Below, piece after piece: positions 3,166-31,632 of a stretch of 64,000 nucleotides of DNA. The DNA lies in IMG/VR virus record IMGVR_UViG_3300002835_000063, positions 32,001-96,000 of that record. One strand, 5' to 3'. Within the stretch, counting starts at the first letter, position 1. Every line of letters starts with the position of its first letter. The translations under genes and the position numbers were made by a program. Source of the DNA: a virus. The notes beneath the pieces were generated by a model. The model ran no database searches. It was given only the letters and a program-made list of their open reading frames with translations, and was not told the DNA's origin.

Positions 3166-3194
3166 AAAGTAGCAAAGATCAATTAGTTTGTCAA
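3166..3194 (-). promoter_or_regulatory. SigA-type promoter TTGACA-17-TACTTT, leaderless
   Basis: Consensus -35, 17-nt spacer, TG extension, ATG 7 nt downstream. Confidence 0.7.
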
Positions 3195-6758: not shown

Positions 6759-9804
<3,046 letters not shown>

Positions 9805-9832
<28 letters not shown>

Positions 9833-10772: not shown

Positions 10773-10854
10773 ACTACAAGTATACCTTCCACATCACTAA
10801 AGCTTAGATACGGTAAAATAAGACTAATCTGACTCTCCCGCCGAAAGACTGTAA

Positions 10855-11217
10855 ATGAGCGCCCCAGCCGGTTTATATAACATAGTGGCCGATCAAGGCT
10901 CAACGCTTTCGCGCATTATTTATTACAAAGATCCAGCTAAGAAGCCAATCAAATTTAATGGATATACAGCCCGTATGCAAGTCAGACCATCTGTAGATAG
11001 CTCTAACGTAATTTTGGAACTTACTACCGAAAACGGCGGTATCGAACTTGGCGCAACAGACGGAAGTATTTCTTTGTACGTAGAAGACACAACCATGATT
11101 ACGATTCCCGAAGGAATCTATGTTTACGATTTAGAGCTCATTGCCCCGTCAGCCAATTTGTTTGTGTACAAAATTCTTCAAGGCAACTTTGCAGTTAGGT
11201 CGGAGGTAACCAGATAA
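10855..11217 (+). CDS. virion adaptor-like beta-sandwich protein, first gene of fibre operon A
   Basis: DQGST...GYTARMQVR...YVYDLE...ILQG.F.VRSEVTR; paralogue of 25954..26331. Confidence 0.7.
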   Translation: MSAPAGLYNIVADQGSTLSRIIYYKDPAKKPIKFNGYTARMQVRPSVDSSNVILELTTENGGIELGATDGSISLYVEDTTMITIPEGIYVYDLELIAPSANLFVYKILQGNFAVRSEVTR

Positions 11218-11924
11218 TGGCAGGATACACAGTTAGTTCGGTTACTTCAGGTAAGTACGCAAGACAAATTTCTGTTGCAGCCTCTGGTCCACAAGGAGCT
11301 CAGGGCCCAACAGGTCCGGCAGGCTCGGCTGGAGCAACAGGCCCCACAGGCCCCACGGGAGCTCAAGGATCCGCGGGGGCTGGCCTCAGTGCTACTTACA
11401 AATTTAATAATACTACTTCTGCTTCTAACCCAGGCGGCGGCTATTTAGCATTCAATGCTTCCGATCTTTCCTCTGCTACCAGGCTGTATATTTCAACTAC
11501 CGACTCTTCGTTAGATGCGCAAACAGGACTGTTGTCTGCTATGACTCAGTCTACTAACACTTACAAATCAATTATTACAGTCCAGTCAACCACTAATCAA
11601 AGAAATTTTATTAGGTTTTACGTCAGATCTGTGACCGACGAGTCGGGCTGGAAAAACTTTTTGCTGGTTCACTTAGATGGAACGGTTACGTCTTTTACAT
11701 ACAACCAAGCCCTTTCTTTGTTGGTTGCACCCATTGGTGATGCTGGCACTATAGCCAATTTTGAGGACCTAAATGACGTAGACTTTAACACTCCGTTAGA
11801 TGGAGATGTCGTAGTTTACGACCAAGCAAATTCTATGTGGACCAATGTCGCTTCTAGTCAGCTAAACATATCGGGTCAAAATATTTCAGGTACAATTGAG
11901 GGGGGAAGCGCCAATACCTTTTAG
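11217..11924 (+). CDS. structural protein with a short collagen-like segment
   Basis: About 10 Gly-X-Y triplets, a DLNDVD...DGDVVVYD...W motif, C-terminal IEGGSANTF. Confidence 0.75.
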   Translation: MAGYTVSSVTSGKYARQISVAASGPQGAQGPTGPAGSAGATGPTGPTGAQGSAGAGLSATYKFNNTTSASNPGGGYLAFNASDLSSATRLYISTTDSSLDAQTGLLSAMTQSTNTYKSIITVQSTTNQRNFIRFYVRSVTDESGWKNFLLVHLDGTVTSFTYNQALSLLVAPIGDAGTIANFEDLNDVDFNTPLDGDVVVYDQANSMWTNVASSQLNISGQNISGTIEGGSANTF

Positions 11925-11943
11925 TTGAGGATAGAGCAAAAAT

Positions 11944-12306
11944 ATGGCAGTACAAATACAACTCAGGAACGACACGGCCGCTAACTGGACGTCTGTAAAT
12001 CCAACGCTCGCCCAAGGTGAGGTTGGCATCGAGCGCGACACCGGCCTCATGAAGATTGGCGACGGAGCTACCGACTGGGATAATCTTGTTTATTCATCTA
12101 TAGACACCACACAAGTTTCTTACACGCATACTCAAAGCGCTGTAAGTAATAACTGGGTAATAGCTCATAACTTGGGATATTACCCAAATATTCAAATCTT
12201 CGACTCTGGAGACAACATGGTCGAGGGCAACGTAACACACTCAAACAATGTTTCCTTGACGGTCACCTTTTCGGCGGGCCTGACCGGAACAGCTTACCTC
12301 TCCTAG
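11944..12306 (+). CDS. small fibre-associated protein with an Mtd-N/hyaluronidase-N-like domain
   Basis: QIQLRNDTAANWTSVNPTLAQGEVGIERDTGLMKIGDG; then a WVIAHNLGYYP module. Confidence 0.75.
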   Translation: MAVQIQLRNDTAANWTSVNPTLAQGEVGIERDTGLMKIGDGATDWDNLVYSSIDTTQVSYTHTQSAVSNNWVIAHNLGYYPNIQIFDSGDNMVEGNVTHSNNVSLTVTFSAGLTGTAYLS

Positions 12307-12320
12307 AAAGAAAAACCTAA

Positions 12321-14063
12321 ATGGCAAAGCAATTCCTGACAGGTCTGAACCTAAATAAGAACGAGCTGCTCAATGCCAGGATTCAAAACCTGACAACTGC
12401 TCCAGCGTCGCCCGTCTCCGGTCAGATCTACTACAACTCAACAGAGGGAACCCTCTATTACTACAACGGCACGAGCTGGCTAGCTCTTGCTCAGGGTGGT
12501 GACGTAAGCGGCGCAATTAACAACGCGATTGCTAACGCAACTACCGACGACATCGACGAAGGTGCTAATAATCTCTATTACACCACCTCTCGTGCTCAAG
12601 AAGATGCAGCTAGTCTTCTAACTAGTGCAACCCTATCTAACATCACAATTACAGGTAATGCTGTAACTGGACTAACCATCACCGCCGAAAACGGTGTAGA
12701 TGATGCCACCACTGATGACCTAGACGAGGGCACCACAAACAAGTACTTCACTGACCTCCGTGCTCAGGAAGCCGCAGCTAACCTTCTAACCAGTGCTACT
12801 CAGACCAACATCAGCATTACTGGTAATGCTATTGCCGGTCTTACAATCACTGCAGAAAATGGTGTAGCCGACTCTACCACTGATGACCTAGTAGAAGGTT
12901 CAAACAACCTCTACTACACCGATGCAAGAGCACGTGATGCTGTAAGCGCTGGAGATAACTCCCTTACTTACAACGCAGTATCTGGTGCATTCACTGCCAA
13001 CACCTCAACCCTTGCAACGGTTTCTTATGTAGACCAAGAAATCTCTGATGTAAACAACACCATTGATGCACTGACTACTTCTGACATCGCCGAGGGAACT
13101 AATGAGTACTTTACTCAAGACCGTGCTCGTCAGTCAATTAGCGCCGGAGACAACTCTCTTACTTACAACGCAGTATCTGGTGTTCTAACTGCCAACACTT
13201 CAACCCTTGCAACTGTAAGCTACGTTAACTCGGTTGTTGAAGGTCTTCACATTCACGCATCTGCTGTGGCTGCAACCACCGGAAACATTAGCATCTCTAA
13301 TGACCTAGAAGTCGGAGATGTTATTGACGGCGTTACCCTTGCTTCAGGCGACCGTGTTCTTGTCAAGAACCAGAACACCGCGTCTGAAAATGGTATTTAC
13401 GTAGTTCAGCCATCTGGTGCAGCTATTCGCGCAGCTGACTTTGACCAGCCAGCAGAGGTTGACGGTGGTGACTTTATCTTCGTAACCGGAGGTACCATCA
13501 ATGACAACACTGGTTGGGTACAGACATCTACCGGTGTAGTAACAATTGGAACTGACCCAATTTACTTCACTCAGTTCTCTGGTTCAGGCACTTTCACCGC
13601 AGGTAATGGTCTAACTCTAGACGGAACCCAGTTCAACGTAGGTGGCACTGCAGATCGCATTACCGTAACTGCTGACGCTGTTGACATTTCTGCCAGCTAC
13701 GTCGGTCAAAGCTCAATTACCACGGTTGGAACTATTAGTACTGGTACATGGCAAGGCAACACGGTTGCTATTGCTTATGGTGGTACTGGTGCAACCACCG
13801 CTGCAGGTGCTCGCTCAAACCTTGGTGCAACTACCAAATATGCAGCTAGCAACACTCTTTTAGAGCCAACTAGCAACGTAGTTACTTGGGCCATTACTCA
13901 CAACCTAAACACCTCGGACGTGTCTGTTCAGATTCGTGACCTAGGCACCAACGCCGAGGTATTTGTAGACGTGGCAATCACCAACGCAAATACCGTAACC
14001 CTATCGTGGAACTCTTCTGCCAACGTAGCTGCTGACAGCTACCGAGCAGTAGTGGTCGGATAA
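12321..14063 (+). CDS. tail-fibre-like virion protein
   Basis: Repeated TTDDL.EG..N.YYT..RA units; GDRVLVKNQ...NGIY domain; C-terminal ITHNLNT module. Confidence 0.8.
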   Translation: MAKQFLTGLNLNKNELLNARIQNLTTAPASPVSGQIYYNSTEGTLYYYNGTSWLALAQGGDVSGAINNAIANATTDDIDEGANNLYYTTSRAQEDAASLLTSATLSNITITGNAVTGLTITAENGVDDATTDDLDEGTTNKYFTDLRAQEAAANLLTSATQTNISITGNAIAGLTITAENGVADSTTDDLVEGSNNLYYTDARARDAVSAGDNSLTYNAVSGAFTANTSTLATVSYVDQEISDVNNTIDALTTSDIAEGTNEYFTQDRARQSISAGDNSLTYNAVSGVLTANTSTLATVSYVNSVVEGLHIHASAVAATTGNISISNDLEVGDVIDGVTLASGDRVLVKNQNTASENGIYVVQPSGAAIRAADFDQPAEVDGGDFIFVTGGTINDNTGWVQTSTGVVTIGTDPIYFTQFSGSGTFTAGNGLTLDGTQFNVGGTADRITVTADAVDISASYVGQSSITTVGTISTGTWQGNTVAIAYGGTGATTAAGARSNLGATTKYAASNTLLEPTSNVVTWAITHNLNTSDVSVQIRDLGTNAEVFVDVAITNANTVTLSWNSSANVAADSYRAVVVG

Positions 14064-14098
14064 TTACAGTAAAATAGAACGAAAGAAAGAGGTCACCG

Positions 14099-14326
14099 GT
14101 GTCTATTAAGTTTTTAGCGCCAATTAACGTAGTCCAAGGAACTTCATTCCCTGTGACGGCATACACCGGTGACCTTTTCTTTCGATCAGACTTAGGATCC
14201 ATGTATACCTACGACGGGAACGCGTGGGTCTCAATGACAGCAGCAGACGTCACTAACGTGGATGGCGGAAACGCATCAAGCTCATACAACATTAATTACG
14301 ACGGTGGCGGACCGTCTACTTTTTAG
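14099..14326 (+). CDS. small virion protein
   Basis: GDLFFRSD....YTYDG..W; C-terminal DGG motifs. Confidence 0.65.
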   Translation: MSIKFLAPINVVQGTSFPVTAYTGDLFFRSDLGSMYTYDGNAWVSMTAADVTNVDGGNASSSYNINYDGGGPSTF

Positions 14327-14345
14327 GATATAAGGAAATAAGACA

Positions 14346-16568
14346 ATGGCAGTCAGAATTCAGTTTAGGCGCGGAACAGCCGCAGAGTGGGTAGCCGCCA
14401 ATCCGACGCTGGCAGTAGGAGAGCTTGGTCACGAGACCGATACCGGCCAGTTTAAGATCGGTAACGGATCAGCCGACTGGGCAAACCTTGTCTACTCTTC
14501 TGTGAGTGAATCATATGTCGATAATGCTATTGCAAATATAATTGACCTTGCTCCAGCAACTCTTGACACTCTAAATGAGCTAGCAGCAGCACTCGGGGAC
14601 GACCCAGACTTTTTTAATACCGTTGCCAACAATCTAACCGCCCACATCTCAGACACAAGCGTTCACGGGATAGAAAATACTTTAGAACTTGCAACTAGTA
14701 CTGATGTAGCAAACATTTTGGGACAACACTCAGGATCAACAGTTAACGTTCATGGAATTGCAAATACTGCTGAACTAGTACTAAATTCACAACTAGCAGA
14801 CTACACCACTACCGCCAATTTAGTCAATACTTATGCTACTATTGCATCTCTAGCAGACTATGCAACCACAGCAAACGCAGTTTTAACCACTCCAAGTATC
14901 AATGACGCTACTATCAATAATGTTTCTGTAGTTGGAACTGTTACTCTGCCAGATACCACTTCTATTGGAGGTGTTAGTGCTACTGAAATATCATATTTAA
15001 ACAATGTAAGTTCTAGTATTCAAAATCAGCTAAACGATAAAGCACCAACTGACAATGCAATTTTCACTGGAAATATTTCTCTGCCAGCGACAACATCTAT
15101 TGGAGATGTAAGCGCCACCGAAATTGGATATCTAGACAACGTAAGTTCAAATATTCAGGTTCAGTTGGATGCTAAGGCCCCAACAGCTAATGCTAGCTTC
15201 ACCGGATCTATTGCCTTGCCAGCTACTACATCTATTGGAGACATTAGCTCTGCTGAAATTGGATATCTAGATAACGTAAGTTCCAATATTCAAGCTCAGT
15301 TGGATGCCAAGCTTTCCACTTCTTCAGCTGCTAGCATTTACGCCCCACTATCTGACCCAACATTTATTAGCACTGTTACCCTGCCAGCTAATACTACGAT
15401 TGGTTTAGTTACCGGTACAGAAATCGGATATTTAGATAACGTAACTTCTAATATTCAGACTCAGCTGGATGCAAAGGCCCCGACAGCCAACCCCACCTTT
15501 ACAGGCACCGTTTCTGGTATTACAGCAACAATGGTTGGACTTGGAAGCGTTGACAATACCGCTGATTTAGACAAGCCAATTTCTAACGCAACTCAGAGTG
15601 CTCTTGATGCCAAGCTAAGCCTAAGCGGCGGAACAATGACTGGCAAGATTACTCTTGACGGAGATCCATCACAGGCACTGCACGCTGCTACTAAGCAGTA
15701 TGTAGACAATCTTGCAGCCGGTCTCCACATCCACGAGGCCGCTCACGCAGCGACTACCGACACACTGGCAAACTTAATAGCTTCAACTGTTACATATGAC
15801 AATGGAACTGATGGAGTTGGAGCTACCCTAAGCTTGGGAGCAAACCTAACTACACTTGATGGCCACACACTAAACAATGGTGACAGAATTTTGGTTAAGA
15901 ACCAAGCAAACGCTGCTCACAACGGTATTTATGTTCGCACTTCGGCCACCCTACTAACCAGAGCTGATGACTTCAACAGCGCCGCCGAGATTGCTGGTGG
16001 AGATCTAGTATTCGTAGAAAATGGAACTCTCTACAACAGCACTGCCTGGGTAGTCGAGAACGAAGTAAGTACTGTAGGAACTGATGACATTCTTTGGGCT
16101 CAGTTCTCTGGAGCTGGAACGGTTACTGCTGGAACCAATATTCAGGTAGACGGTCTTCAAGTTTCGGTAATTTCTAACCCAACTTTTGCAAACGTTGTAA
16201 CGGCAAGCAGCGGTGTTGCTTTCTCAGATGGAACTCAGACCAAACAGGGTGTCCCCTCAATAACGGTAATTAGCCCTAAGAGTGGTTCCTACACCTTAGC
16301 AAGCTTAGACGAGCGCGACACAATCATTGAGATCAGCAATACAAGTGCTACCACACTCACTATTCCACTTGATTCGACCCTAAACTTCCCGGTTGGAACC
16401 ACATTGGACATCATCCAAACCAACACCGGGCAAGTGACCATAGCTGGCGAGGGTGGAGTAACCGTAAACGCCACCCCAGGCCTAAAACTAAGGGCCCGCT
16501 GGTCATCTGCTACACTATTAAAGCGAGCAGCAAACACTTGGCTGGTATACGGCGACCTGAGCGCTTAA
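14346..16568 (+). CDS. tail-fibre-like protein with an Mtd-N-like N-terminus
   Basis: RIQFRRGTAAEW; APATLDTLNELAAALGDD; four LP.TTSIG..S..EI.YL.NV.S.IQ.QL repeats; shares the GDRILVKNQ domain with 12321..14063; ends WLVYGDL. Confidence 0.82.
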   Translation: MAVRIQFRRGTAAEWVAANPTLAVGELGHETDTGQFKIGNGSADWANLVYSSVSESYVDNAIANIIDLAPATLDTLNELAAALGDDPDFFNTVANNLTAHISDTSVHGIENTLELATSTDVANILGQHSGSTVNVHGIANTAELVLNSQLADYTTTANLVNTYATIASLADYATTANAVLTTPSINDATINNVSVVGTVTLPDTTSIGGVSATEISYLNNVSSSIQNQLNDKAPTDNAIFTGNISLPATTSIGDVSATEIGYLDNVSSNIQVQLDAKAPTANASFTGSIALPATTSIGDISSAEIGYLDNVSSNIQAQLDAKLSTSSAASIYAPLSDPTFISTVTLPANTTIGLVTGTEIGYLDNVTSNIQTQLDAKAPTANPTFTGTVSGITATMVGLGSVDNTADLDKPISNATQSALDAKLSLSGGTMTGKITLDGDPSQALHAATKQYVDNLAAGLHIHEAAHAATTDTLANLIASTVTYDNGTDGVGATLSLGANLTTLDGHTLNNGDRILVKNQANAAHNGIYVRTSATLLTRADDFNSAAEIAGGDLVFVENGTLYNSTAWVVENEVSTVGTDDILWAQFSGAGTVTAGTNIQVDGLQVSVISNPTFANVVTASSGVAFSDGTQTKQGVPSITVISPKSGSYTLASLDERDTIIEISNTSATTLTIPLDSTLNFPVGTTLDIIQTNTGQVTIAGEGGVTVNATPGLKLRARWSSATLLKRAANTWLVYGDLSA

Positions 16569-16583
16569 TTAGGAGAGAATTAA

Positions 16584-17960
16584 ATGAGCAAGAGAGCTGG
16601 AAGAAAGTCTCAGGCTTCTAATGACTTTTTAGAGCCAAAAGCCCCGATTAACGTATCTGCTACGGACGTTGGAACTGCCCGTGCCTACAATGATGGCGCT
16701 GCTAGCGTTTCTTTCGAGTTACCAGGAGACTCGCCAGCCGCTACTTCTTATGAAGTTAAAGCATATAAAAATGGAACCACTCTCGACACTACCGCAACTG
16801 GAACAACGGGGGCAAGCTCTCCTATCACAGTTGGCGGGCTAGATTCTGCCACTGGATATACTTTTACAGTATCTGCAACTAACGCTGCTGGCACATCGGC
16901 AGATTCAGCCGCATCTGCTTCTGTAACCATTACAACCGTCCCACAGGCTCCGCAAAGCCCATCAGCCACTTCTACAACTGCTAATCAAGACATCATCTCT
17001 TGGTCAAACGGTGCTAATGGTGGGAAAGCCATAACTAGCACATATTTTGTGTCAAGTGACCAGACCACAAATCCAGGCAACGTAACCATGACCACCAACC
17101 CATGGACTGAGCCAGAAAACGGTGGTTCAACGCAGAACTATACTCTGTATCACGTAAACGATAATGGAACCTCAGCAGGCGCTTCTACCGCTAACGTAAC
17201 TACGATTGCACCATTCTTCCCACCATTCTTCCCACCGTTCTTCCCATTCTTCCCGCCTTTCTTCCCGTTCTTCCCACCGTTCTTCCCACCGTTCTTCCCA
17301 CCATTCTTCCCACCATTCTTCCCGTTCTTCCCACCTTTCTTCCCACCGTTCTTCCCGCCATTCTTCCCACCATTCTTCCCACCGTTCTTCCCACCGATGT
17401 TCCCATTCTTCCCACCGTTCTTCCCACCGTTCTTCCCACCGATGTTCCCATTCTTCCCACCGTTCTTCCCACCTAGATTCCTATGTATTGAAGAAAACAC
17501 AATGATCTTGACACCTAGAGGAGAGATCGCGGCTAAGGATCTTCGAGCAGGAGATACGGTATTGTCAATAGCAATTAATGAGATTGGCAATAACTCTGTT
17601 ACCCCAATTGAATTCACTGTTGGTGCAACTTTGACGAGCACATCGCAGCTAGTCGAGACAAAGATTGTTGGAATTCTAGAGACCGTAAAGACCGGAATAA
17701 CTTACTTCAACGGTAGGTCAGAGGCCAGATATTCTAGCCAGCAGCCACTGTTTGTTAAGTCTGATGGAGAATTCCAGGTAAAGATTGTTTCTAACATTAA
17801 GCTTGGAGATGCTCTCCTGCTGATTAATCCAGATGGAACATACACCGAAGAAGAGGTAACCGAAATTACTCTAGTTTCGGAGCCGGCCAATGTATTCCAA
17901 TTCTCCTGCGAGCCATATCACTGGTTTATAGCTGGTGGCTACTTGGCCCACAATAAGTAA
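16584..17960 (+). CDS. FN3 domains + (PPFF)n tract + C-terminal Hint (intein-like) domain protein
   Basis: FN3 motif VGGLDSATGYTFTVSATNAAGTS; 88-residue P/F tract; CIEENTMILTPRG...DLRAGDTVLS ... HWFIAGGYLAHNK-stop. Confidence 0.85.
   Translation: MSKRAGRKSQASNDFLEPKAPINVSATDVGTARAYNDGAASVSFELPGDSPAATSYEVKAYKNGTTLDTTATGTTGASSPITVGGLDSATGYTFTVSATNAAGTSADSAASASVTITTVPQAPQSPSATSTTANQDIISWSNGANGGKAITSTYFVSSDQTTNPGNVTMTTNPWTEPENGGSTQNYTLYHVNDNGTSAGASTANVTTIAPFFPPFFPPFFPFFPPFFPFFPPFFPPFFPPFFPPFFPFFPPFFPPFFPPFFPPFFPPFFPPMFPFFPPFFPPFFPPMFPFFPPFFPPRFLCIEENTMILTPRGEIAAKDLRAGDTVLSIAINEIGNNSVTPIEFTVGATLTSTSQLVETKIVGILETVKTGITYFNGRSEARYSSQQPLFVKSDGEFQVKIVSNIKLGDALLLINPDGTYTEEEVTEITLVSEPANVFQFSCEPYHWFIAGGYLAHNK
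17211..17474 (+). repeat. coding tandem repeat (PPFF/PFF/PPMF) x23 + PP
   Basis: 12-nt and 9-nt units CCN-(CCN)-TTC-TTC; Pro codons vary (CCA/CCG/CCT). Confidence 0.98.
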
Positions 17961-17978
17961 AAGCAGTACTACTAAACT

Positions 17979-18017
17979 ACCCCCCTTATGATTAGTAAGG
18001 GGGGGTGTTTATTTTTT
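17979..18017 (+). terminator. intrinsic terminator ending fibre operon A
   Basis: ACCCCCCTTA-tgattag-TAAGGGGGGGT followed by GTTTATTTTTT. Confidence 0.75.
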
Positions 18018-18066
18018 AACTTTAATCACTATAATTGAATAGAGTGGTTTAACAGAAAGAATTTAT

Positions 18067-18801
18067 ATGAATACTTGGTTCACAAAAGACAGATCAGAGA
18101 CTGACTCTAATCGAATGCCCCCAAGACCACTGGGCCAAAAAATACAAGTATTAAACCCTGCCTTAGGGATAAATGTATATCGTGGCGCAATAACAAAAGA
18201 AGAGGGCAGGGCTTGCGTAGACATTTTAGAGTCAACCTTAAATGGCCAAACTCAATACAAATGGAGTGATGCTCAAGTTACAAATTCTTCAAAGGCTAAC
18301 CTAGAAGCAAGAAATGCCAAAGATTTTAAATTTAATTCGACTGGCCTAGGGCCAAAAAATGAAGAAAATGAAAAATTATATGAAATGCACGAAAAAATTT
18401 TTAGGGCAGTAAAAGCATGTGTAGATGATTATGGTTATTACTGGGGCGTTGGGATAATGTCATATGAGGCTTTTAACTTTGTTAAGTATGAAGGAGCCGG
18501 GACCCACTTTAAAATTCACGCAGATCATGGCCCAACATATGTAACTACGGTGTCTATTGTCGTGTATCTCAACGATGATTATGAGGGGGGAGAACTTTGG
18601 TTTCCCCGATTTGATTTAACCCTAAAACCACAAGCTGGAGATATAGCAGTTTTTCCGTCAACATACATCTACGAACACGCTTCGCAGGACATGATTAGTG
18701 GGACTAAGTATTCTGTTGTCATTATGAGCGACTATAATGACAGAGATAATGTAAACCAAAGAGTGCCTCAAACCATTCAAAATTATCAACTTAAGTACTA
18801 G
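18067..18801 (+). CDS. P4H-like 2OG-Fe(II) oxygenase #1
   Basis: HAD...YLNDDYEGGEL.F...YEHAS...KYS; TATAAT at 18030-18035. Confidence 0.9.
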   Translation: MNTWFTKDRSETDSNRMPPRPLGQKIQVLNPALGINVYRGAITKEEGRACVDILESTLNGQTQYKWSDAQVTNSSKANLEARNAKDFKFNSTGLGPKNEENEKLYEMHEKIFRAVKACVDDYGYYWGVGIMSYEAFNFVKYEGAGTHFKIHADHGPTYVTTVSIVVYLNDDYEGGELWFPRFDLTLKPQAGDIAVFPSTYIYEHASQDMISGTKYSVVIMSDYNDRDNVNQRVPQTIQNYQLKY

Positions 18802-18812
18802 AAAGAGCCAAA

Positions 18813-19583
18813 GTGTCAGAACAGATCAACAAAACCGAAGAAGAAGTACGCCTAGAGGCAGAACAAAAAAGTAAAGAAGAGCAAAAAAATATACACGAGC
18901 GGCTAGTAAATTGGTACAAAATTGACGAGGTGACTTGGAGTTCAGCAGAAGAAATTGTTCCTGGCAGCGGCATTTGGGTATACCATGATGTTTTGCCCGC
19001 CGAGATGAATATAATTTCTCGGTTAGAAGAAGTTTTAGATAATCCAGAAAATAACTATCAGTACCAAGAAGCAATGGTCGGATATGCAATGAAAATCCCG
19101 GAGTACCGAGACTGCGTAGATTTTAAATACAAAGAGAATGACTTTGACAATGATCAGTCAGAGTGGGGTGACAAGCTTCGACAGTTGGCAAAAGATACAA
19201 AGTATAGACAGCTACAGGTAGTAAAAGATTACACAAGAAGATATAACATCGGCGAACTTCGTTACTGGGAAGCAACCAACTATGTTCGCTATGGAGTTGG
19301 CCAACACTTCCAGGAACATCACGATCACGGGTACTCCTACAACTGTGTAGTTTCTTTGGTTGCGTACCCAAATGACGACTACGAAGGCGGTGAGCTTTAT
19401 TTCAGATTACAAAACATAACTGCTAAAGCCCGCGCTGGCGATGTTTTTATTTTTCCCTCTAATTTTATGTACCCACACAGGGCAATGCCAGTTAAGTCTG
19501 GAGTTAAATACTCTATGGTTACTATGCTTGATTACTCAGAAAAACTACACAATCCAGAATTTTTTAAGGAGCTAGAGAACTAG
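18813..19583 (+). CDS. P4H-like 2OG-Fe(II) oxygenase #2
   Basis: HHD...YPNDDYEGGEL...YPHRA...KYS. Confidence 0.9.
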   Translation: MSEQINKTEEEVRLEAEQKSKEEQKNIHERLVNWYKIDEVTWSSAEEIVPGSGIWVYHDVLPAEMNIISRLEEVLDNPENNYQYQEAMVGYAMKIPEYRDCVDFKYKENDFDNDQSEWGDKLRQLAKDTKYRQLQVVKDYTRRYNIGELRYWEATNYVRYGVGQHFQEHHDHGYSYNCVVSLVAYPNDDYEGGELYFRLQNITAKARAGDVFIFPSNFMYPHRAMPVKSGVKYSMVTMLDYSEKLHNPEFFKELEN

Positions 19584-21069: not shown

Positions 21070-21083
21070 GATAAACTAGACCC

Positions 21084-21767: not shown

Positions 21768-21798
21768 TAGAATTATCATCAACAAGCAAGGATCTAAA

Positions 21799-22578: not shown

Positions 22579-22582
22579 TAAA

Positions 22583-23197: not shown

Positions 23198-23844
23198 AAT
23201 ATGAAATACCTTACGAGAATATTGTTTATTTTCCAGAAATTGTTCCGGACGTAGATAACATAATTTCTTCAATAGAGTCCACAAATAGTCTAGCTATAAC
23301 TAAATGGGAAATTTGGAATGCTTATGGAGAATCAGACGGGGATCCATATGGCGAAGTAAAATACATGAGCAAACATCTTTTAGATGCAGAGACTAACCAA
23401 AAAACTGTAGAAACCTCAAAATATATAATTTCTACGCTAATAAGTTCAATGTCATTAGCAGCCGAAACTTACGCAAAAATATATAACATTGATTCTAACC
23501 TTTTGCAGTATGCAATTGATGCATTAAATATGCCTGGCACAAAATATGGAATAAACAAATATTTTGAGAATCAATACATGGGACCACACGTTGACTGGAA
23601 TGAGTACAACTCCGACATTACTTATACCATTGTTGTTTACTTGAACGATGATTACGAAGGCGGGGAGCTATTTTTTGTGGATCCGGACATAAACATAAAA
23701 ATAAAACCTAAAAAGGGAAGCATAGTAATGTTTCCATCTGTCCTGCCATATCTGCATCAATCCTGTGAGATTACTAAGGGAAGAAAAATGCTGATAACTC
23801 ATCACTGGAAAAATGATTCACTATCAAGAAACAGGACTTACTAA
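23188..23844 (+). CDS. P4H-like 2OG-Fe(II) oxygenase #6
   Basis: HVD...YLNDDYEGGEL...YLHQS...RK. Confidence 0.9.
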   Translation: MEIKYEIPYENIVYFPEIVPDVDNIISSIESTNSLAITKWEIWNAYGESDGDPYGEVKYMSKHLLDAETNQKTVETSKYIISTLISSMSLAAETYAKIYNIDSNLLQYAIDALNMPGTKYGINKYFENQYMGPHVDWNEYNSDITYTIVVYLNDDYEGGELFFVDPDINIKIKPKKGSIVMFPSVLPYLHQSCEITKGRKMLITHHWKNDSLSRNRTY

Positions 23845-24698
23845 TGTCAATTAATGTAAATCTTATTGAAGTTTTTTCTAAAGAAGATCTCTATTCTAGA
23901 CTAAACGAAATTTTAGATGTTCAAACTAAAAATTCCATTGTTGGGATTAGAGGAGTTAGGCTTACTGAAGAAGAGCAGCTACAGCTAGCCAGAGATCTCG
24001 GAGACATAGCTGGCTGGTTCCCAAACAACACCGACAAATTTAATCACAAATATATTGAAAATCACTCTGCCAACCCATCGGTGGGAGCCTCTTCAAATAA
24101 CGAATTAATTTTAAGCTGGCACCTAGAGCGCGTCGATTATGACGAATATCTTTTGTTGGTGGCTGGCGTTTGGAACATGAGACTTTTTAATTGTGATCCA
24201 GAATCGGGTAAAACATATTTTATAGATTCCAGAAAAGTGTTCCAAAAAATTTACAATGAAGATGAAAAGAATTTTTTGCGAGGCTGCAAAGCCTACTGGA
24301 CAGAACAAACGCCAAGCGGCAATACACGCACTAATTATGTAAAGATTGTTCAGCCCCATTGGAAGACCGAAGAAGAACAAATTAGAGTTGAGCTACACCA
24401 TATGGCTGCAATTAAATTGTACAAAATAAACGATAATGACCCAACTTCAGAAGAAGCGGCCGCCTTTGAGTCATTAATGAAAAGATTTTCTCAAGAAATA
24501 GCAAACAACGAAGATTTAAGAATAATTCACAAATGGAAAGAGGGAGACATCCTCATTCCAGATCTTTTCTCTCTAGCGCACGCCGTCACGGGCGGATTTG
24601 ACCCCAAAGACAGAGAGTTTACCGGATACTGGTGCTATACGGCGTCTCCCTCTAGTGTTGGAGAAGACAATGTCCCGCCATCTTGGAGGGGTGAATAA
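23844..24698 (+). CDS. TauD/TfdA/CAS-like 2OG-Fe(II) dioxygenase
   Basis: WHLE, G.TYFID, HKWKEGDILIPD....H...R pattern. Confidence 0.75.
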   Translation: MSINVNLIEVFSKEDLYSRLNEILDVQTKNSIVGIRGVRLTEEEQLQLARDLGDIAGWFPNNTDKFNHKYIENHSANPSVGASSNNELILSWHLERVDYDEYLLLVAGVWNMRLFNCDPESGKTYFIDSRKVFQKIYNEDEKNFLRGCKAYWTEQTPSGNTRTNYVKIVQPHWKTEEEQIRVELHHMAAIKLYKINDNDPTSEEAAAFESLMKRFSQEIANNEDLRIIHKWKEGDILIPDLFSLAHAVTGGFDPKDREFTGYWCYTASPSSVGEDNVPPSWRGE

Positions 24699-24700
24699 GC

Positions 24701-25171
24701 TTGAACGATTTAAATCCAACAAATGAAGTATATGTAAATCAATACAAAGAAGCTGTAAAACAAAATAAAGCAAATTCTTATATGCTCACTATTGCCAGAG
24801 ACGGCGAATCACCAGTCAGGTCAATTTATTTTTATGATAATGCAGTAGACGCCACTATTGGATATGAAGCATACCAAGACTGGGGATTTGCTAAAGACTA
24901 TCTAACGGTGGAGCTATATGAGCCAACTGGAAGGGTTCACAGCAAAGTTTTGCGCAGGCCTCGCGGTGGAGAGTGCACTTTTGAGCGGGCACAGTACTAC
25001 CAAATTTCTGACATAATAAACGCCGTTAAGCCAAAAGTAGACGAGGAAGCATTCAACTACCTAGCCTACGAGTTTGCTAAGCTATTCTCGAAGGACAACC
25101 AAAGGTTTAATCCAGAGCGATTTTTAGAGACGCTGGGATATACAGGAGAAATAAATGACAGATCTGTCTAA
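24701..25171 (+). CDS. hypothetical protein within the oxygenase array
   Basis: 156-aa ORF, tightly packed; C-terminal F..DN.RFNPERF motif. Confidence 0.6.
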   Translation: MNDLNPTNEVYVNQYKEAVKQNKANSYMLTIARDGESPVRSIYFYDNAVDATIGYEAYQDWGFAKDYLTVELYEPTGRVHSKVLRRPRGGECTFERAQYYQISDIINAVKPKVDEEAFNYLAYEFAKLFSKDNQRFNPERFLETLGYTGEINDRSV

Positions 25172-25889
25172 GATCGAGACTACCCCGACAGAGTTTGGCG
25201 ATAAGGGATTTATCAAAGAAGATATTGTTTTTTACAATAATTTTCTAACCCAAGAAGAGTGTGAGACCCTGGTTAGAGTATTCGAGGACGAAGAGCAACC
25301 CTGGAGCATGTCAGCTTTTTTTGAGTCGTACGGCATGAGTATTATGCCAGAAGACCCGATTTTAGAGCGATACGGGTTACCTAGAGATTACTTTGGGAAA
25401 CTAGCAGATAGGCTACATAAGGTAGTAGAAGATGCCCACGAGCGTCCAGTAAAATCAGTTTCGTCTCATGCCCAGAAGTGGCAAATAGGGGCGTTTGCTC
25501 CATTTCATTCAGACAACACCGACATGGATGGAAACCCGTCTGCCTGGGAGAAAAGCAAACTTGTCTGCCTCTTGTACATAAATGACGACTATGAGGGCGG
25601 AGAGCTAGACTTTAGGGATCACGATATCTCGATCAAACCGGTGGCGGGCCAGTTAATTACTTTCCCCGGCGGATTTAATAACATCCACCAAGTGTTGCCA
25701 GTGAGGGGCTCTACGAGACATACCATTGGAGCTTTCTGGGATTATGCCGAATCGGTCTACTCCGAAGAGCGCATGAAGCAATGGGAAGATGAAATCCAAA
25801 AGGTCCGAGAAGAGCAAAAAGTCATGCAGGACGAGTGGAAAGAAATGGTTGCCAAGGGGGTCCACCCCACGGATCCGGGCGCTCAATAG
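25155..25889 (+). CDS. P4H-like 2OG-Fe(II) oxygenase #7
   Basis: HSD...YINDDYEGGEL...NIHQV...RH; coiled-coil C-terminus. Confidence 0.9.
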   Translation: MTDLSKIETTPTEFGDKGFIKEDIVFYNNFLTQEECETLVRVFEDEEQPWSMSAFFESYGMSIMPEDPILERYGLPRDYFGKLADRLHKVVEDAHERPVKSVSSHAQKWQIGAFAPFHSDNTDMDGNPSAWEKSKLVCLLYINDDYEGGELDFRDHDISIKPVAGQLITFPGGFNNIHQVLPVRGSTRHTIGAFWDYAESVYSEERMKQWEDEIQKVREEQKVMQDEWKEMVAKGVHPTDPGAQ

Positions 25890-25953
25890 TCAATTTAGCC
25901 AAACTGCGGTAAAATTGTAAGGACTAGTCTAATCCCCTGTTAGGACTTTCCGC

Positions 25954-26331
25954 ATGAGTCATTTGCGTGGCAATATCCATGATCTAATCACAGATCAGGG
26001 ATCTACTGTACACCAGGTATTTACTATCAAAAACTCGGCTCGTCGGATAATCCCCCTAACCGGGTATTCGGCTCGTATGCAAGTCAGACGTTGGGACGTG
26101 GAAACCAGGGATCCCGTCCTAACAACTATCGCTGAATATACAACTGCAAACGGATATCTAACCGTCAACGGTGCCGCGGGAACCGTGACTCTTCTTATTC
26201 CGCCCGCCGATATGGCAGCATACGAGCCAGGTTCTTATGTTTACGACATCGAGGTCGAGACAGCAAATGCTGGAGATACCACTCGGATCATCCAGGGAAA
26301 ATTTATTGTGAGAGCTGAGGTAACCAAGTAG
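25954..26331 (+). CDS. virion adaptor-like protein, first gene of fibre operon B
   Basis: DQGST...GYSARMQVR...YVYDIE...IIQGKF.VRAEVTK; paralogue of 10855..11217. Confidence 0.7.
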
Positions 26332-28742
26332 TGGTACTCTCTGACAATTTTGCATATGTAGACGTTAAAGGTCCTGGACCTCAAGGACCTGCAGGACCAA
26401 CAGGACCTGCAGGACCAGCAGGTGGACCAACTGGACCCACAGGTGTCACGGGACCGACAGGTGCAACGGGACCATCTGTTACAGGTCCAACAGGTCCTAC
26501 TGGACCTACTGGAAACTTAGGTCCTACGGGCCCAACAGGTCCTCAGGGTATTGCAGGTTTGTCAGTCACCGGTGCAACTGGTGCAACTGGAGCAACTGGT
26601 GCAGCCGGTGCTACAGGACCAACTGGAGCACAGGGTATTGCAGGTTTATCAATTACTGGACCAACTGGTGCTGCAGGCGTTGCAGGTCCAACAGGACCAA
26701 CCGGTGCAACTGGTGCAGCAGGTTCTGATGGACTAAGCATTACTGGACCAACTGGACCAACTGGTGCTGCAGGCGTTGCAGGTCCAACAGGACCTACTGG
26801 GTCGCAAGGTATTGCTGGTTTATCAATTACTGGACCTACCGGTGCGCAAGGAAACGTGGGCCCAACTGGTGCAACAGGACCTACTGGGTCGCAAGGTATT
26901 GCTGGTTTATCAATTACTGGACCTACCGGTGCTCTTGGTCCCACTGGTCCCACTGGCCCTACGGGCCCAACTGGCGCAGACAGCATGGTTACAGGTCCGA
27001 CTGGTCCTACAGGACCCACAGGTCCTACCGGAGCAACTGGAGCAACTGGTGCAGACAGCATGGTTACAGGTCCGACTGGTCCTACAGGACCCACAGGTCC
27101 TACCGGAGCAACTGGAGCAACTGGTGCAGACAGCATGGTTACAGGTCCGACTGGTCCAACCGGTGCAACTGGACCTCAAGGAATATCACTAGAGCTAATT
27201 GGATCAGTAGAGAATATAATTGATCTACCGCCCAGTGCAAATATTAACGAAGCATATATTGTCCAAGCCGATGGAAATCTTTATGTGTGGGACGGCGCTC
27301 AATGGGTAGATGTTGGCCAAATTGTTGGACCCATTGGACCGACTGGCCCAACTGGCCCAACGGGAGCAACTGGACCTCAGGGCAATCAGGGCATCCAAGG
27401 TGTTCAAGGCGACACCGGACCCATTGGACCGACAGGCGCAACTGGCCCAGAAGGAAATTATTATGTTGGAGATAATCCTCCACTAACTCCTACAGAGGGC
27501 GATGGTTGGTTCAACACTTCTACAACAAAATTCTTTATTTACTACGACAATTTTTGGATTGAAGTTGCCACCACCGAGCGAGGCCCAACTGGAGCGACTG
27601 GAGATACAGGGCCAGCTGGACCAACAGGTTCCACCGGAGCGACTGGAGATACGGGACCTCAAGGTATTCAGGGTGTAACTGGACCTACCGGAGCGACTGG
27701 AGATACGGGACCTCAAGGTATTCAGGGTGTAACTGGACCTACCGGAGCGACTGGAGATACGGGAGCTACGGGCCCTACCGGAGCGACTGGAGATACGGGA
27801 GCTACGGGCCCTACCGGAGCTGATGCACTGTGGAATTTCACTGGACCATATCAAATAGGGTCTTCTTATGCAGTGGGCGATGTTGCTACCTATGGTGGAC
27901 AGACTTGGTATCGCATAGACGCAAATGGTGGAAACACCGGAGACACCCCATCAGAGGGAACATTCTGGACATTGATAGCGCAAGCAGGAGCTATCGGCGA
28001 CACAGGCCCTACTGGAGCGACTGGAGACACTGGACCTCAAGGTATTCAGGGTGTAACTGGACCTACCGGAGCGACTGGAGACACTGGACCCCAAGGGCCA
28101 ACTGGACCAACGGGTGACACAGGCCCGACGGGCCCGACGGGATTGGGTATTCCACTGGGTGGCGACACCGGTCAAATTTTGGCAAAAGACTCTCCAGCCG
28201 ATGGCGACTATGTTTGGGTTGACAACTATGCTGATTGGACTGCTGTTGTTAAGCACGAAGTTAGAGCAGAGCAAGTATTAACAAAAGGTCAAGCTGTCTA
28301 TGTTAGCTCTTCTGATGGCACCAACATGCGAGTCTCTAAATCGTCTAATGCTACAGAATCAGCATCAAGCAAAACCCTGGGAATTATTGCTCAGAATTTG
28401 GCAGTAAACGGTCAAGGCTTCGTAATAACAGAGGGCCTTCTAGCTGGTCTAAACACATCGACCGCTACAACTGGAGATCCAATTTGGCTTGGAACTGATG
28501 GAAACTTAATTTTTGGCTTAGCAAACAAGCCATCAGCTCCAGCTCATTTAGTTTATTTAGGTGTCGTAACTAGAGTAAATCTTAACAATGGTGAGATATT
28601 TGTTAAGGTTCAAAATGGATTTGAACTGCAAGAACTTCACAATGTAAAAATTAACGGCATCCAAGGCGGCGATATTTTGTCTTACAATGCAATTAGCCAG
28701 CTTTGGGAAAATATTCATGTTGTTGACGGAGGTACGCCATAA
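26331..28742 (+). CDS. collagen-like (Gly-X-Thr rich) fibre protein, 803 aa
   Basis: Long GPT/GAT/GDT tracts interrupted by globular modules; ends VDGGTP. Confidence 0.9.
26976..27157 (+). repeat. 75-bp tandem repeat (about 2.4 copies)
   Basis: Units start at 26976, 27051 and 27126; encode [25 protein letters not shown]. Confidence 0.9.
27633..27820 (+). repeat. 54-bp then 27-bp tandem repeats
   Basis: ACCGGAGCGACTGGAGATACGGGA units at 27633, 27687 and 27741. Confidence 0.85.
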
Positions 28743-29542
28743 TGGCTATTGATTTTCCAAATAGTCCGTCTATAGGACAACAAGTTTCTGCAAATGGCAC
28801 CATCTGGGAGTGGGATGGAATTGCTTGGGTTGTAATTGGGACACCTGTTTCCATTGGCCCAACTGGACCAATCGGGCCAACTGGACCGCAAGGCAGCCAA
28901 GGAATTACTGGTCCAACAGGAAGCACTGGTCCAACAGGCGCTGACAGCACAGTACCGGGACCAACCGGACCAACTGGACCCCAAGGAGATACGGGTCCAA
29001 CAGGCATTCAAGGAAACGTGGGTCCTACCGGACCACAGGGAATTCAAGGCCCAACCGGAGCAGTTGGTTCCCAGGGTGTGCAGGGTGCAACAGGTCCAAC
29101 TGGACATCAAGGTGATACAGGACCAACTGGCGCAACAGGAGACACTGGACCTCAAGGAAACATCGGAGACACAGGGCCTGCAGGACCGACTGGAGCAACT
29201 GGAGACACAGGGCCTGCAGGACCGACTGGAGCAACTGGTGCAACTGGTGCAACTGGACCTACAGGAGCAGATGGAACATTCTTAGTTTCAAGCTCAGTGC
29301 CGCCAACCCCCACCGAGGGTCAAATTTGGTTTAATTCAGTTGAAGGTAAATTATTAATTTTCTATGACGGTTTTTGGGTAGAAACAATTGTCGGTGAGGT
29401 TGGAGCGACAGGACCAACCGGTCCAGCGGGGAGCTCTACTTTGTATACTCCAACAACACCATTAGATTGGGTCACCACCCCAAATACTATCTCTGAAGCA
29501 TTAGATCAACTTGCTAGTAGAATAAAAGCACTAGAACCGTAG
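28742..29542 (+). CDS. collagen-like fibre protein
   Basis: MAIDFPNSP...WEWDG..W N-domain followed by a Gly-X-Y tract. Confidence 0.88.
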
Positions 29543-29553
29543 GATAAACATAA

Positions 29554-30735
29554 ATGGCTATTTTAAATTTTCCCGACAATCCGTTGGTAGGGGATACTTT
29601 TGAAGCATCCTCTCAGGGGGGTATTTTTGCTAATAGTACTTCAACTTGGACTTGGACTGGAACCTACTGGGAGGCAGAATCTACCGAACTAATCGTCGGT
29701 CCCACGGGCCCTACAGGGGCTACCGGAGCAACTGGGCCCCAGGGTACAAGTATTAACTTTAAAGGTTCTGTAAATACTTTTAACGATTTACCACTAAGTA
29801 ATAACATTGTAAACGATGCCTACATAAATCACGAAGACGGGGATCTCTATGTTTGGGATGGAAGCGTTTGGGACAGTGTCGGTCAAATCGTTGGCCCCCA
29901 GGGAGCCACTGGACCCACTGGAGCGACTGGTCCTCAGGGCATACAAGGAGCTACAGGTGATCAGGGACAGCAGGGACCCACTGGACCAACCGGGCCCCAA
30001 GGAACTCCAGGACTAGTTGGACCGACTGGTGCAACTGGTGCGCCTGGATTAGATGGTCTTTCCGGTCAATCAGGTTTAGATGGTGCTACTGGACCCACTG
30101 GTCCCACCGGAGCCACTGGTCCTCAAGGAGATGTTGGACCCACCGGCCCCCAGGGATTGCAGGGACAGACCGGATATACCGGTCCCACCGGAGCCACTGG
30201 CGACACCGGTCCCATCGGCCCAACTGGTGCTGCAGGTACAAACGGATTAAATGGAGATACGGGCCCCACCGGTGCAACAGGGGCAACCGGCCCAACCGGC
30301 CCACAAGGTACAAACATTAATTTTATTGCAACAGTAGCCACAGTAGCAAACTTGCCAGGTTCAGCAAATCAGAATGATGCATATATCGTTGAAGCTGATG
30401 GTGATTTGTATGTTTGGGACTCCCTAAATACCGAGTGGGATAACGTTGGACAAATTGTTGGTCCTCAGGGTCCTACTGGTGCCACAGGGCCGACTGGAGC
30501 TACGGGCAACACGGGAAGCTATACAGTATCAGCCCCTCTTTCATTAGTCGGTAGCAACATCAGCATTCAGAGTAATCCAACGTTTACCGGAAATGTTTCA
30601 GCTACTTCATTCACCGGAAACTTAATTGGAACAGCTGACAATTCATTAAAAATTGAAGGCAGAAAAATTTATGTTCAGAGTTCTGCACCAACTTCCGGCA
30701 TGTCAAATGGCGACATTTGGATTGACATTCCGTAA
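29554..30735 (+). CDS. collagen-like fibre protein
   Basis: [11 protein letters not shown]-domain, Gly-X-Y tracts, two DAYI...DGDLYVWD...W..VGQIVGP modules. Confidence 0.88.
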
Positions 30736-30753
30736 AAATACCGAGGACTAATA

Positions 30754-31632
30754 ATGGCATCATATGCGGGAGACGGGGCCTTTAGCCTAAGAAATACTGT
30801 ACGGTTGTATGTACAGATAGAAACAACTTTGGTGGCTGGGGGAACTGAACTTTATATTACAGCCTACGCTCAAAGAGACCCCGGTGAAACTAGAACTCCA
30901 AATAGTTCTATTGCAACTAAATCCTACAGCGTGCCAGGAGGAAGAAGCGGCGGAGCGACAGGATCTCTTTTAGAGTCTGGATCAGCCAACTGGACTTATA
31001 ACTGGGCAACGGGAGATCCACAAATTGTTTGGAGCGGATTTTTTAGGTATATACAATTTGGACCAGGATCTGTTACCGTAAATATAGGTGCCCAGGGGGG
31101 AGGAGTAATTGGCACTGCTTCAGTTAACGTAAATGTACCCTTATTTTCTGCACCGCCATTCTTCCCACCGTTCTTCCCACCTTTCTTCCCGCCATTCTTC
31201 CCACCGTTCTTCCCACCGTCGCCGTACTGGGTAACAAATACTTTAACTTCTAGTACAGCTATAGAGGGTCAGGCATACTCCAGCACCTTCTCGGCCGTTC
31301 ACGTAAATAGTTATGCGCTATTTAGTGGAAGTTTGCCATCAGGAATTTCAATCAACTCGAGCACCGGAGTTTTATCTGGAACACCGGCCCAAGGATCAGC
31401 TGGAACTTATAATTTTGTAATTAGTGCGTCTGGGGACGGCGGAACTATTTACACTGGAACACTTACTTTAACTGTGGCCGATGATGGCGGAAAAGTAAGA
31501 GTTTATAATTCAAGCACAGGACAGTGGGAGGAAGCAACGGTTTATGTATATAACTCGGCTACTTCTCAGTGGGTTCAGTCAGATTTGTATGTTTACAATA
31601 GCAGCACTGGAACTTGGGTAAAAAGCGTTTAG
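30754..31632 (+). CDS. virion protein with a (PPFF)5 tract and putative Ig (He_PIG-like) domain; last gene of fibre operon B
   Basis: SAPPFFPPFFPPFFPPFFPPFFPPSP; GSLPSGISINSSTGVLSGTP...GTYNFVISA; three VYNS.T..W repeats. Confidence 0.8.
   Translation: MASYAGDGAFSLRNTVRLYVQIETTLVAGGTELYITAYAQRDPGETRTPNSSIATKSYSVPGGRSGGATGSLLESGSANWTYNWATGDPQIVWSGFFRYIQFGPGSVTVNIGAQGGGVIGTASVNVNVPLFSAPPFFPPFFPPFFPPFFPPFFPPSPYWVTNTLTSSTAIEGQAYSSTFSAVHVNSYALFSGSLPSGISINSSTGVLSGTPAQGSAGTYNFVISASGDGGTIYTGTLTLTVADDGGKVRVYNSSTGQWEEATVYVYNSATSQWVQSDLYVYNSSTGTWVKSV
31153..31218 (+). repeat. coding repeat (PPFF)5-PP
   Basis: Same CCN-CCN-TTC-TTC unit as 17211..17474. Confidence 0.97.

Follow-up and report, generated by a model that had tools for sequence, protein, structure and literature searches.

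In a 64,000-nucleotide stretch of DNA from an uncultured lake phage (hereafter the window), two operons that each end in a gene for a protein with a proline-phenylalanine repeat (the Pro-Phe tract) were found to enclose an array of oxygenase genes dependent on 2-oxoglutarate and iron (2OG-Fe(II)), most of them of the prolyl 4-hydroxylase (P4H) type. The window comprises bases 32001-96000 of the 108,880-bp IMG/VR record IMGVR_UViG_3300002835_000063, which is estimated to be 65% complete. This layout had been described in an earlier, sequence-only reading of the same DNA, and every gene listed there was recovered in the position given for it. Judging from the sequence comparisons below, the data support a functional unit made up of the tract protein and the oxygenase battery. 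Across unrelated phages, gain, loss, and transfer affect the repeat and the enzymes jointly, which makes the Pro-Phe repeat a candidate substrate, open to experimental test, for phage oxygenases. We give the predicted hydroxylation of the tract by the adjacent enzymes a probability of roughly 0.55.

Tract loci were collected with a degenerate DNA pattern for (PPFF)3. At least 120 viral contigs matched, and the pattern lay in frame inside an open reading frame (ORF) in all 120 of the loci selected with it. When 596 Gb of prokaryote genomes were searched, 22 matches were obtained. About six of these were real, being phage-type proteins on contigs of metagenome-assembled genomes, four of them beside oxygenases; the rest were short low-complexity sequences. 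On the sequences searched, the tract is virus-specific and essentially absent from cellular genomes.

The tract and the oxygenases were closely linked. PF13640 oxygenases were present in 44 of the 49 whole tract-bearing viral records, mostly in 6-11 copies, and the other five records are fragments (5-31% complete). At loci selected by the tract alone, an oxygenase was seen in 84/120, and in 52 of the 63 loci that are at least 8 kb long. Of 185 tracts, 183 had the nearest oxygenase or DUF6065 gene on their downstream side and 167 had it on the same strand; the median gap was 680 bp. The linkage was also examined in reverse with 80 loci that were fetched only through orthologues of the first oxygenase of the array (54-75% identity), about 59 of them new by contig name. 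A tract was found upstream in 75 of the 80; where at least 2.5 kb of upstream sequence was available (54 loci), it lay within 3 kb in 52 and at ~4.3 kb in the other two. The co-occurrence of tract and oxygenases, which the sequence-only reading had put forward as a check, was seen in both directions.

The genes that recur around the tract were counted by comparing the window proteins by tblastn with 196 loci from ~180 distinct contigs. The recurrent partners were the oxygenases, DUF6065 (131/196), the remote DUF6065 homologue (111/196), and a fibre protein like the product of ORF 14346-16568 (116/196). Genes for the adaptor, TauD, APS kinase, and GT2-TPR proteins were rare or absent. No glycosyltransferase or sulfation genes were found in the cassette of other phages, so that comparison lends no support to the suggested follow-on steps by GT61, GT2-TPR, and sulfation enzymes; APS kinase alone recurs, far from the cassette, in two genomes. 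A nearby sulfotransferase had also been proposed, and none was identified in the window. Collagen-like genes were rejected as a conserved or core partner because they occur in just 14 of the 124 loci of at least 8 kb and also form an operon without tract or oxygenase in the related genome G053.

The cassette was found on unrelated phage backbones. The capsid gene of this phage was present in 0 of the 49 tract records, in a search that recovered the copy of its own genome as a positive control. G001 and G027 (each 83% complete) have 58-60 of 106 genes in common, and G024 and G021 have 41-42 in common, with 13-28 genes common between these two groups and this genome. The genes that the four genomes share with this genome are mostly those for fibre, tract, oxygenase, and DUF6065 proteins, in the same order and at 25-62% identity. 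Since unrelated backbones share mainly cassette genes, the sequence comparisons indicate transfer of the cassette among three or more deep phage lineages, or its retention in all of them.

Within the capsid family of this phage, the tract and the array come and go together. A search with the capsid protein gave 25 long records (55-93% identity). Oxygenase arrays were present in G050 (15 matches), G051 (11), G060 (9), and G071 (4, at the contig end), and P(P)[FY]F tracts were present only in G050, G051, and G060; the tract of G050 is PPYF and had escaped the strict PPFF pattern. Neither a tract nor an oxygenase array was found in G052 (100% complete), G054 (90%), G055 (87%), or G053 (75%). In G053 the syntenic site by NrdI is occupied by an adaptor gene (52% identical), one collagen-like gene, and a pair of large ORFs, and both the tract and the oxygenases are missing. 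A fibre operon can thus follow this plan in the absence of the enzymes, whereas every tract-bearing genome of the capsid family in the gathered data has them. Joint presence and absence in this family, together with adjacency and joint transfer between backbones, tie the tract to P4H-type oxygenase arrays. The full 21-kb plan, with both tract proteins flanking the array, is retained in G050 and G051; the twin operons are not a general feature but are limited to these close relatives.

Sequence statistics for the tract were taken from 105 distinct full-length proteins. The repeat reads P(P)XF, with Phe at X in 82% of units, Tyr in 13%, Ser in 3%, and His in 1%, and the tract region spans 16-330 residues (median 60) with a composition of ~46% Phe and 42% Pro. 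About 80% of the tracts lie at the C-terminus or close to it; in these the protein ends with the tract, continues into a short Cys-rich tail, or, in a minority, carries a Hint domain behind it. The N-terminal partners are unrelated to each other and include one to three FN3 domains, a ~60-residue domain, Cys-rich modules, and large proteins. The proposal that PPFF is portable was thus borne out, with FN3, Ig, small-domain, Cys-rich, and Hint contexts all represented. The synonymous codons of the tract differ between phages. In the two window tracts (17211-17480 and 31153-31212, plus strand), all 54 Phe codons are TTC, compared to 27% TTC in the other window genes; this bias could reflect repeat homogenisation or avoidance of T runs.

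Two other views of the tract were considered and set aside. A non-coding or regulatory DNA repeat was rejected because the tract is in frame in 120/120 loci, lies between folded domains, and has varied synonymous codons. A multi-core precursor like those of ribosomally synthesised and post-translationally modified peptides is unlikely, as the units are not separated by cleavage sites and the tract forms one chain with folded surface-type domains. As a separate observation, the "direct terminal repeats" by which the 154,192-bp G050 record is marked as complete are the (PPYF)n coding repeat at both contig ends (loci L331 and L332). This call is probably a tandem-repeat artefact, since the contig was broken within the tract gene and so carries the repeat at both ends.

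Between the two operons lie seven PF13640 P4H-type oxygenases, one TauD-family enzyme, a DUF6065 gene, and a remote DUF6065 homologue, all on the plus strand; the eight oxygenases and the two DUF6065-like genes of the sequence-only reading were thus accounted for. Oxygenase 1 (18067-18801), whose orthologues (54-75% identity) follow the Pro-Phe gene in related loci, and oxygenase 2 (18813-19583) precede the DUF6065 pair. Oxygenases 3 (21084-21767), 4 (21799-22578), 5 (22583-23197), and 6 (23188-23844) come after it; the start of oxygenase 5 was moved to the ATG at 22583, which is probably the correct start rather than 22442. The TauD/TfdA-family 2OG oxygenase (23844-24698; PF02668, E 1.5e-16) is rare in other loci. 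A conserved hypothetical protein of 156 aa (24701-25171), found in 26 loci and present in G051, lies between it and oxygenase 7 (25155-25889).

The seven P4H-type ORFs scored 33.8-54.3 bits with PF13640 against a gathering cut-off of 27, and the paralogues are 22-33% identical to oxygenase 1. The iron triad HxD...H (H151, D153, H204) is invariant in 7/7, and a Lys or Arg lies 9-11 residues past the distal His in 7/7. Among solved structures, the oxygenase profile is closest to prolyl and lysyl hydroxylases, namely the Bacillus anthracis P4H (3ITQ/5IAX, 6e-11), P3H1 (2e-8), the PBCV-1 P4H (5C5T, 2.3e-8), and LH3; PKHD-type PiuC hydroxylases score as well. We class the array enzymes as P4H-type on this basis, and peptidyl proline hydroxylation is their predicted activity. 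The window oxygenases align with cyanophage enzymes in the catalytic cores only. Three further PF13640 genes lie outside the window and away from the main array (G000:C1:23124-24027, minus strand; 31134-31397, plus strand), which brings the total to ten in the 65%-complete record.

The DUF6065 protein (19583-20329), which has an invariant Cys39, matched PF19541 with 89.3 bits against a cut-off of 26.6. The remote homologue (20329-21069) had no Pfam match and was recognised by hhalign (97.3%, E 2.5e-11). The DUF6065 model had a predicted local distance difference test (pLDDT) score of 88.8, every listed Foldseek match to it was a dUTPase, and VIA-align gave Z-scores of 9.2-7.2 for twelve dUTPases. 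The match in fold is at 7-18% identity, and the consensus sequence of the DUF6065 family shows no evident dUTPase motifs such as DYRG. A cupin or oxygenase identity for DUF6065 was rejected because of the dUTPase-like fold, and its inclusion in a hydroxylase set is not supported. The family profile built here also matched gp43 of Synechococcus phage Syn9 (NC_008296.2 36054-36842, locus L342; E 4.8e-12), which the Pfam DUF6065 model misses. This profile places the protein annotated merely as "gp43" in the DUF6065 superfamily.

These observations can be put together in the following model, which we consider the most probable. The region would be a mobile phage cassette in which the gene for a Pro-Phe polymer, carried on surface-type domains (FN3, Ig) and encoded beside fibre genes, is followed by a battery of P4H-type paralogues and two dUTPase-fold DUF6065 proteins. 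The tract may form an extended polyproline-II-like tail or linker of fibre-associated proteins, with a presumed location in the virion. The adjacent oxygenases would hydroxylate it during assembly, at proline and possibly at other positions, and each conserved paralogue may have its own position or regiochemistry. Hydroxylation could then alter the solubility, stiffness, or stickiness of a very hydrophobic segment. In the first tract protein, a Hint/BIL-type domain would probably trim the chain at Leu300|Cys301 or transfer it to another group, and the mature protein would then end in the tract, as in most relatives.

P4H-type enzymes act preferentially on Pro-rich, polyproline-II-like segments. 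The tract as substrate is the simplest reading because the enzymes are of the P4H type, because such enzymes favour Pro-rich extended segments, and because PBCV-1 offers a precedent. A more far-reaching proposal, which we hold only tentatively, is that (P-P-aromatic-F)n is a virus-specific polymer of hypervariable length that serves as a portable appendage tag and as the dedicated substrate of P4H batteries aided by DUF6065. Each paralogue would add a defined hydroxyl (at Pro C3 or C4, possibly on Phe or Tyr), and the oxidised adhesive or rigid rod would set host attachment.

Several observations weigh against tract hydroxylation. Homologous arrays without a tract are present in the cultured cyanophages S-SCSM1 (whole genome) and Syn9 (array region), so the enzymes do not generally need a Pro-Phe substrate; in S-SCSM1 the arrays lie among fibre genes, and no (PPFF)2 was found anywhere in the genome. 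A strong terminator-like hairpin (17980-18004, plus strand; a 10-bp stem followed by a T-rich tail) stands 3' of the first Pro-Phe gene and separates it from the array. DUF6065 has the fold of a nucleotide enzyme, and at least seven conserved paralogues exceed the obvious need of a four-residue repeat. The tract genes of G009 are ~30 kb from the oxygenases, and the tract-bearing records G012, G014, G017, and G018 have a single oxygenase. Most records are fragments, and the counts do not represent independent events since many loci are akin. Finally, the fibre genes are co-inherited with the cassette, and linkage therefore cannot fully separate the tract from the fibre as the target.

One alternative explanation is that the targets of the oxygenases are other parts of the virion (for example fibre shafts, collagen-like proteins, or tail-collar-type domains) and that the tract is an unmodified hydrophobic linker or anchor travelling with the fibre genes. 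The co-inherited fibre homologues would fit this, as would Syn9 and S-SCSM1, where dioxygenase arrays without a tract are directly beside tail-fibre genes. Linked bacterial dioxygenases have also been proposed to act on collagen-like and tail-collar proteins (Iyer et al. 2010, PMC2938197). However, the scarcity of collagen-like genes at tract loci and the adaptor-collagen-fibre operon of G053, which has no oxygenases, speak against it. In the capsid family, arrays of at least four copies occur only with the tract, except in G071, where the array abuts the contig end, and fibre-type domains are found there without tract or array. The tract, at 42% Pro, also matches the substrate preference of P4H-type enzymes. 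We regard modification of other virion proteins in place of the tract as doubtful.

Another possible explanation is that the array enzymes build or alter a small molecule or redirect host metabolism, through a secondary metabolite or control of 2-oxoglutarate, and that the array neighbours the fibre and tract genes only because both sit in one mobile accessory island. Secondary-metabolite synthesis was proposed for the Syn9 array (Iyer et al. 2010, PMC2938197), and effects on 2-oxoglutarate and nitrogen were proposed for cyanophages (PMC9602691). The terminator between tract gene and array and the presence of a TauD-family enzyme and a JmjC protein would also suit this explanation. It is made improbable by the structural relatives of the enzymes, the best of which are protein hydroxylases, by the order of tract followed by oxygenase on the same strand, which is kept at 25-60% identity across unrelated backbones, and by the gene content, since no halogenase, nonribosomal peptide synthetase, ATP-grasp, or other scaffold-building enzyme was found among the array ORFs scanned (18067-25889). 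It is also conceivable that the array acts on nucleotides or DNA, with DUF6065 handling nucleotides and the oxygenases oxidising bases in a hypermodification pathway. The dUTPase-like fold of DUF6065 (Z 9.2-7.2) and Tet_JBP matches of two oxygenases (E ~0.003) point in this direction, but those matches are weak and fall far below the gathering threshold, whereas the PF13640/P4H matches are clear. With dUTPase motifs such as DYRG not evident and the link to the tract and fibre genes left unexplained, a role in DNA modification seems very improbable.

Parts of this cassette resemble known systems. The tandem dioxygenase array of Synechococcus phage Syn9, gp41-gp54, was described by Iyer, Abhiman, de Souza, and Aravind (2010, PMC2938197). 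Like the window array, it is a tandem series of numerous 2OG-Fe(II) dioxygenases that differ from one another, follows immediately on tail-fibre genes, and includes a co-encoded dUTPase-fold protein with a conserved cysteine (here DUF6065, C39). It differs in that Syn9 has two tryptophan halogenases and no Pro-Phe tract, whereas no halogenase family was detected among the ORFs scanned in the window array; the proposed substrates of the Syn9 enzymes are secondary metabolites. The window array, by contrast, is flanked by Pro-Phe proteins and belongs to siphovirus-type phages of other hosts.

The closest precedent for a viral substrate is the prolyl 4-hydroxylase of PBCV-1, which acts on Pro-rich repeats in proteins that the virus itself encodes (Eriksson et al. 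1999, as cited in PMC9301287). The likeness lies in a virus-encoded P4H-type enzyme combined with Pro-rich repeats in the virus's own proteins, and the PBCV-1 structure 5C5T matches our oxygenase profile (2.3e-8). In contrast to the window, this eukaryotic virus has one enzyme instead of 7-15 paralogues, and its (PAPK)n-type repeats are hydrophilic and contain no aromatics. We know of no conserved substrate-then-enzyme gene order for PBCV-1.

Predicted hydroxylation followed by sulfation of co-encoded structural proteins has been described for bacterial operons (Iyer et al. 2010, PMC2938197). The window is similar in having collagen-like genes, an APS kinase gene (38122-38889), and a JmjC protein. 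Unlike those operons, it has no identified sulfotransferase, its oxygenases are of a different family (PF13640), and its sulfation and glycosyltransferase genes are not conserved with the cassette. As a working analogy, the maturation of plant extensins and other hydroxyproline-rich glycoproteins and of animal collagen also involves P4H-type enzymes acting on repetitive polyproline-II-like segments of extracellular proteins. The tract differs from these in having no Gly-X-Y or Ser-Pro4 units and in being half aromatic, and no hydroxyproline glycosyltransferases are linked to it.

Phage tandem dioxygenase arrays and viral P4H enzymes with Pro-rich substrates are thus already known. For the Pro-Phe polymer, its pairing with arrays, or DUF6065, nothing relevant was found in the literature searched. 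Few "auxiliary" genes of aquatic phages are as abundant as those for 2OG-Fe(II) and P4H enzymes, of which some cyanophages have up to 24 copies. Recent papers still regard the role of these viral genes as open. A conserved partner that is co-transferred and co-lost with the arrays and lies directly upstream of them makes the role of the oxygenases experimentally tractable. If true, the tract would be the first substrate class to be assigned to the abundant viral "P4H" and 2OG-Fe(II) genes, which are currently listed among auxiliary metabolic genes. Confirmation would move the oxygenase genes from host metabolism to virion tailoring and would add a new post-translationally modified structural polymer.

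Operon A (10855-17960, plus strand) was found with all its genes as first described. It begins with adaptor A, a small phrog_1084 protein of 120 aa (10855-11217; E 1e-20) that also has a weak match to phrog_3304 (L-shaped tail fibre assembly). Next come a collagen-like protein of 235 aa (11217-11924; PF01391 at 23 bits, under the cut-off, with tail-fibre PHROG matches), an Mtd_N-domain fibre protein of 120 aa (11944-12306; PF18454, E 3.5e-14), and a fibre protein of 580 aa with internal 56-aa repeats (12321-14063). These are followed by a small conserved ORF of 75 aa (14099-14326), which is 79-81% identical in G050 and G051, and by a fibre protein of 740 aa with an N-terminal Mtd_N domain (14346-16568), whose homologues are upstream of the Pro-Phe gene in the 116 loci counted above.

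The last gene of operon A (16584-17960) encodes a 458-aa protein with two FN3 domains, a PPFF/PFF tract of 90 residues (210-299), and a Hint domain. In the AlphaFold2 model, built with 38 homologues, the FN3 pair and the Hint domain had pLDDT above 90 (over most of residues 301-458 for the Hint region), and the tract was modelled as coil with pLDDT ~50. Foldseek recovered tandem FN3 domains and matched the C-terminal domain to the BIL2 domain of the Tetrahymena BUBL locus (6Y75; E 1e-7, target-normalised TM-score 0.78, root-mean-square deviation 2.9), with which it shares the Hint fold, a first-residue Cys, and a terminal His-Asn. Cys301 and the C-terminal HNK are kept in six Hint-bearing homologues. 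Among the 105 full-length relatives, the domain is in a minority (four by the terminal-motif criterion and a few more by alignment). It departs from BIL/Hint domains in block B, where Thr-x-x-His is replaced by S..Q; the aligned block reads R[FY]S..QP.FVK and has no His. All Pfam scores were under their cut-offs (PT-HINT 18.4, Hint_2 18.1, and Intein_splicing 17.4 bits). Because the fold, the first Cys, and the terminal His-Asn are present but the block B His is missing, we call Hint-domain cleavage of this protein plausible only.

Operon B (25954-31632, plus strand) has adaptor B, a phrog_1084 protein of 125 aa (25954-26331), followed by a collagen-like fibre protein of 803 aa (26331-28742), a collagen-like protein of 266 aa with tail-fibre and tail-collar PHROG matches (28742-29542), and a collagen-like protein of 393 aa (29554-30735) that scored above the PF01391 cut-off (E 1.6e-26, 92 bits). 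In the Gly-X-Y collagen-like repeats of the window, Pro is mostly in the X position (GPT). The final gene (30754-31632) encodes a 292-aa protein with an N-domain, the (PPFF)5 tract, a He_PIG Ig domain, and VYVYNSxTxxW repeats. The orthologues read, down to ~34% identity, all have the tract as the link between a variable N-domain and the Ig domain. The two Pro-Phe proteins therefore differ in architecture as originally noted, with two FN3 domains and Hint in one and a He_PIG Ig domain in the other. The adaptors also proved to be paralogous (35% identity, E 6e-23), and in both operons the adaptor stop overlaps the start of the collagen-like gene (ATAATGG and GTAGTGG).

A shared site had been noted ahead of each operon. 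In its short form, GGTAAAAT, it is not enriched (5 sites versus 3.0 expected), and this part of the claim was dropped. Both operons are preceded by an extended motif, CGGTAAAAT-N(2-6)-GACTArTCTrA (in places less well matched), which recurs at a third site and lies ~45 nt before the start codons. It reads CGGTAAAAT..GACTAATCTGA at 10811-10836 (plus strand), ~43 nt upstream of operon A, and CGGTAAAAT..GACTAGTCTAA at 25907-25936 (plus strand), upstream of operon B, with the extended motif at 25908 and a weaker form at 32059 on the minus strand. The weaker copy (32040-32067, minus strand) precedes the ORF 31629-32012, which is on the minus strand and convergent on operon B. From its sequence and position, the motif may be a phage promoter with a conserved leader.

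The remaining genes of the window give some indication of the type of phage and its host. Siphovirus-type genes (major tail protein, tape measure, Dit, and Tal-like) are on the minus strand at 50-64 kb, and the phrog_777 capsid gene used above sits just beyond the window edge. The presence of a WhiB-family regulator (40134-40607, minus strand) and a class Ib ribonucleotide reductase set of NrdF, NrdE, and NrdI (6759-10221, minus strand) suggests an actinobacterial host for this ~165-kb siphovirus. No cultured relative was found. The array had no match to cultured phages by megablast, and tblastn of both Pro-Phe proteins and DUF6065 gave nothing useful, as the low-complexity filter masks the tract; no cultured relative of the cassette appeared in the cultured-phage collection searched by tblastn.

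Some further genes were noted. Upstream of the ribonucleotide reductase genes are genes for a JmjC-domain protein, an S8 subtilase, GT61, an NTP transferase, and a cytidylyltransferase (3-638, 1869-3182, and 3218-4192, all on the minus strand, and 4275-5427). They form a possible second protein- or sugar-tailoring group, which is unlinked to the cassette in other phages. The APS-kinase-like gene and the 70-aa ORF that follows it (together 38122-39098, plus strand) have counterparts in G001 and G027, with 63% and 43-78% identity, respectively. In those genomes, which have unrelated backbones, the pair is far from the cassette and among the few other genes shared with the window. In the part of the genome outside the window, a 1493-aa ORF (L205:3167-7648, minus strand) has portal-like and head-maturation-protease-like PHROG matches, and a 1001-aa ORF (L205:7856-10861, minus strand) has an anti-restriction-type domain (phrog_7245). 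Each is an exceptionally large fusion within the head module.

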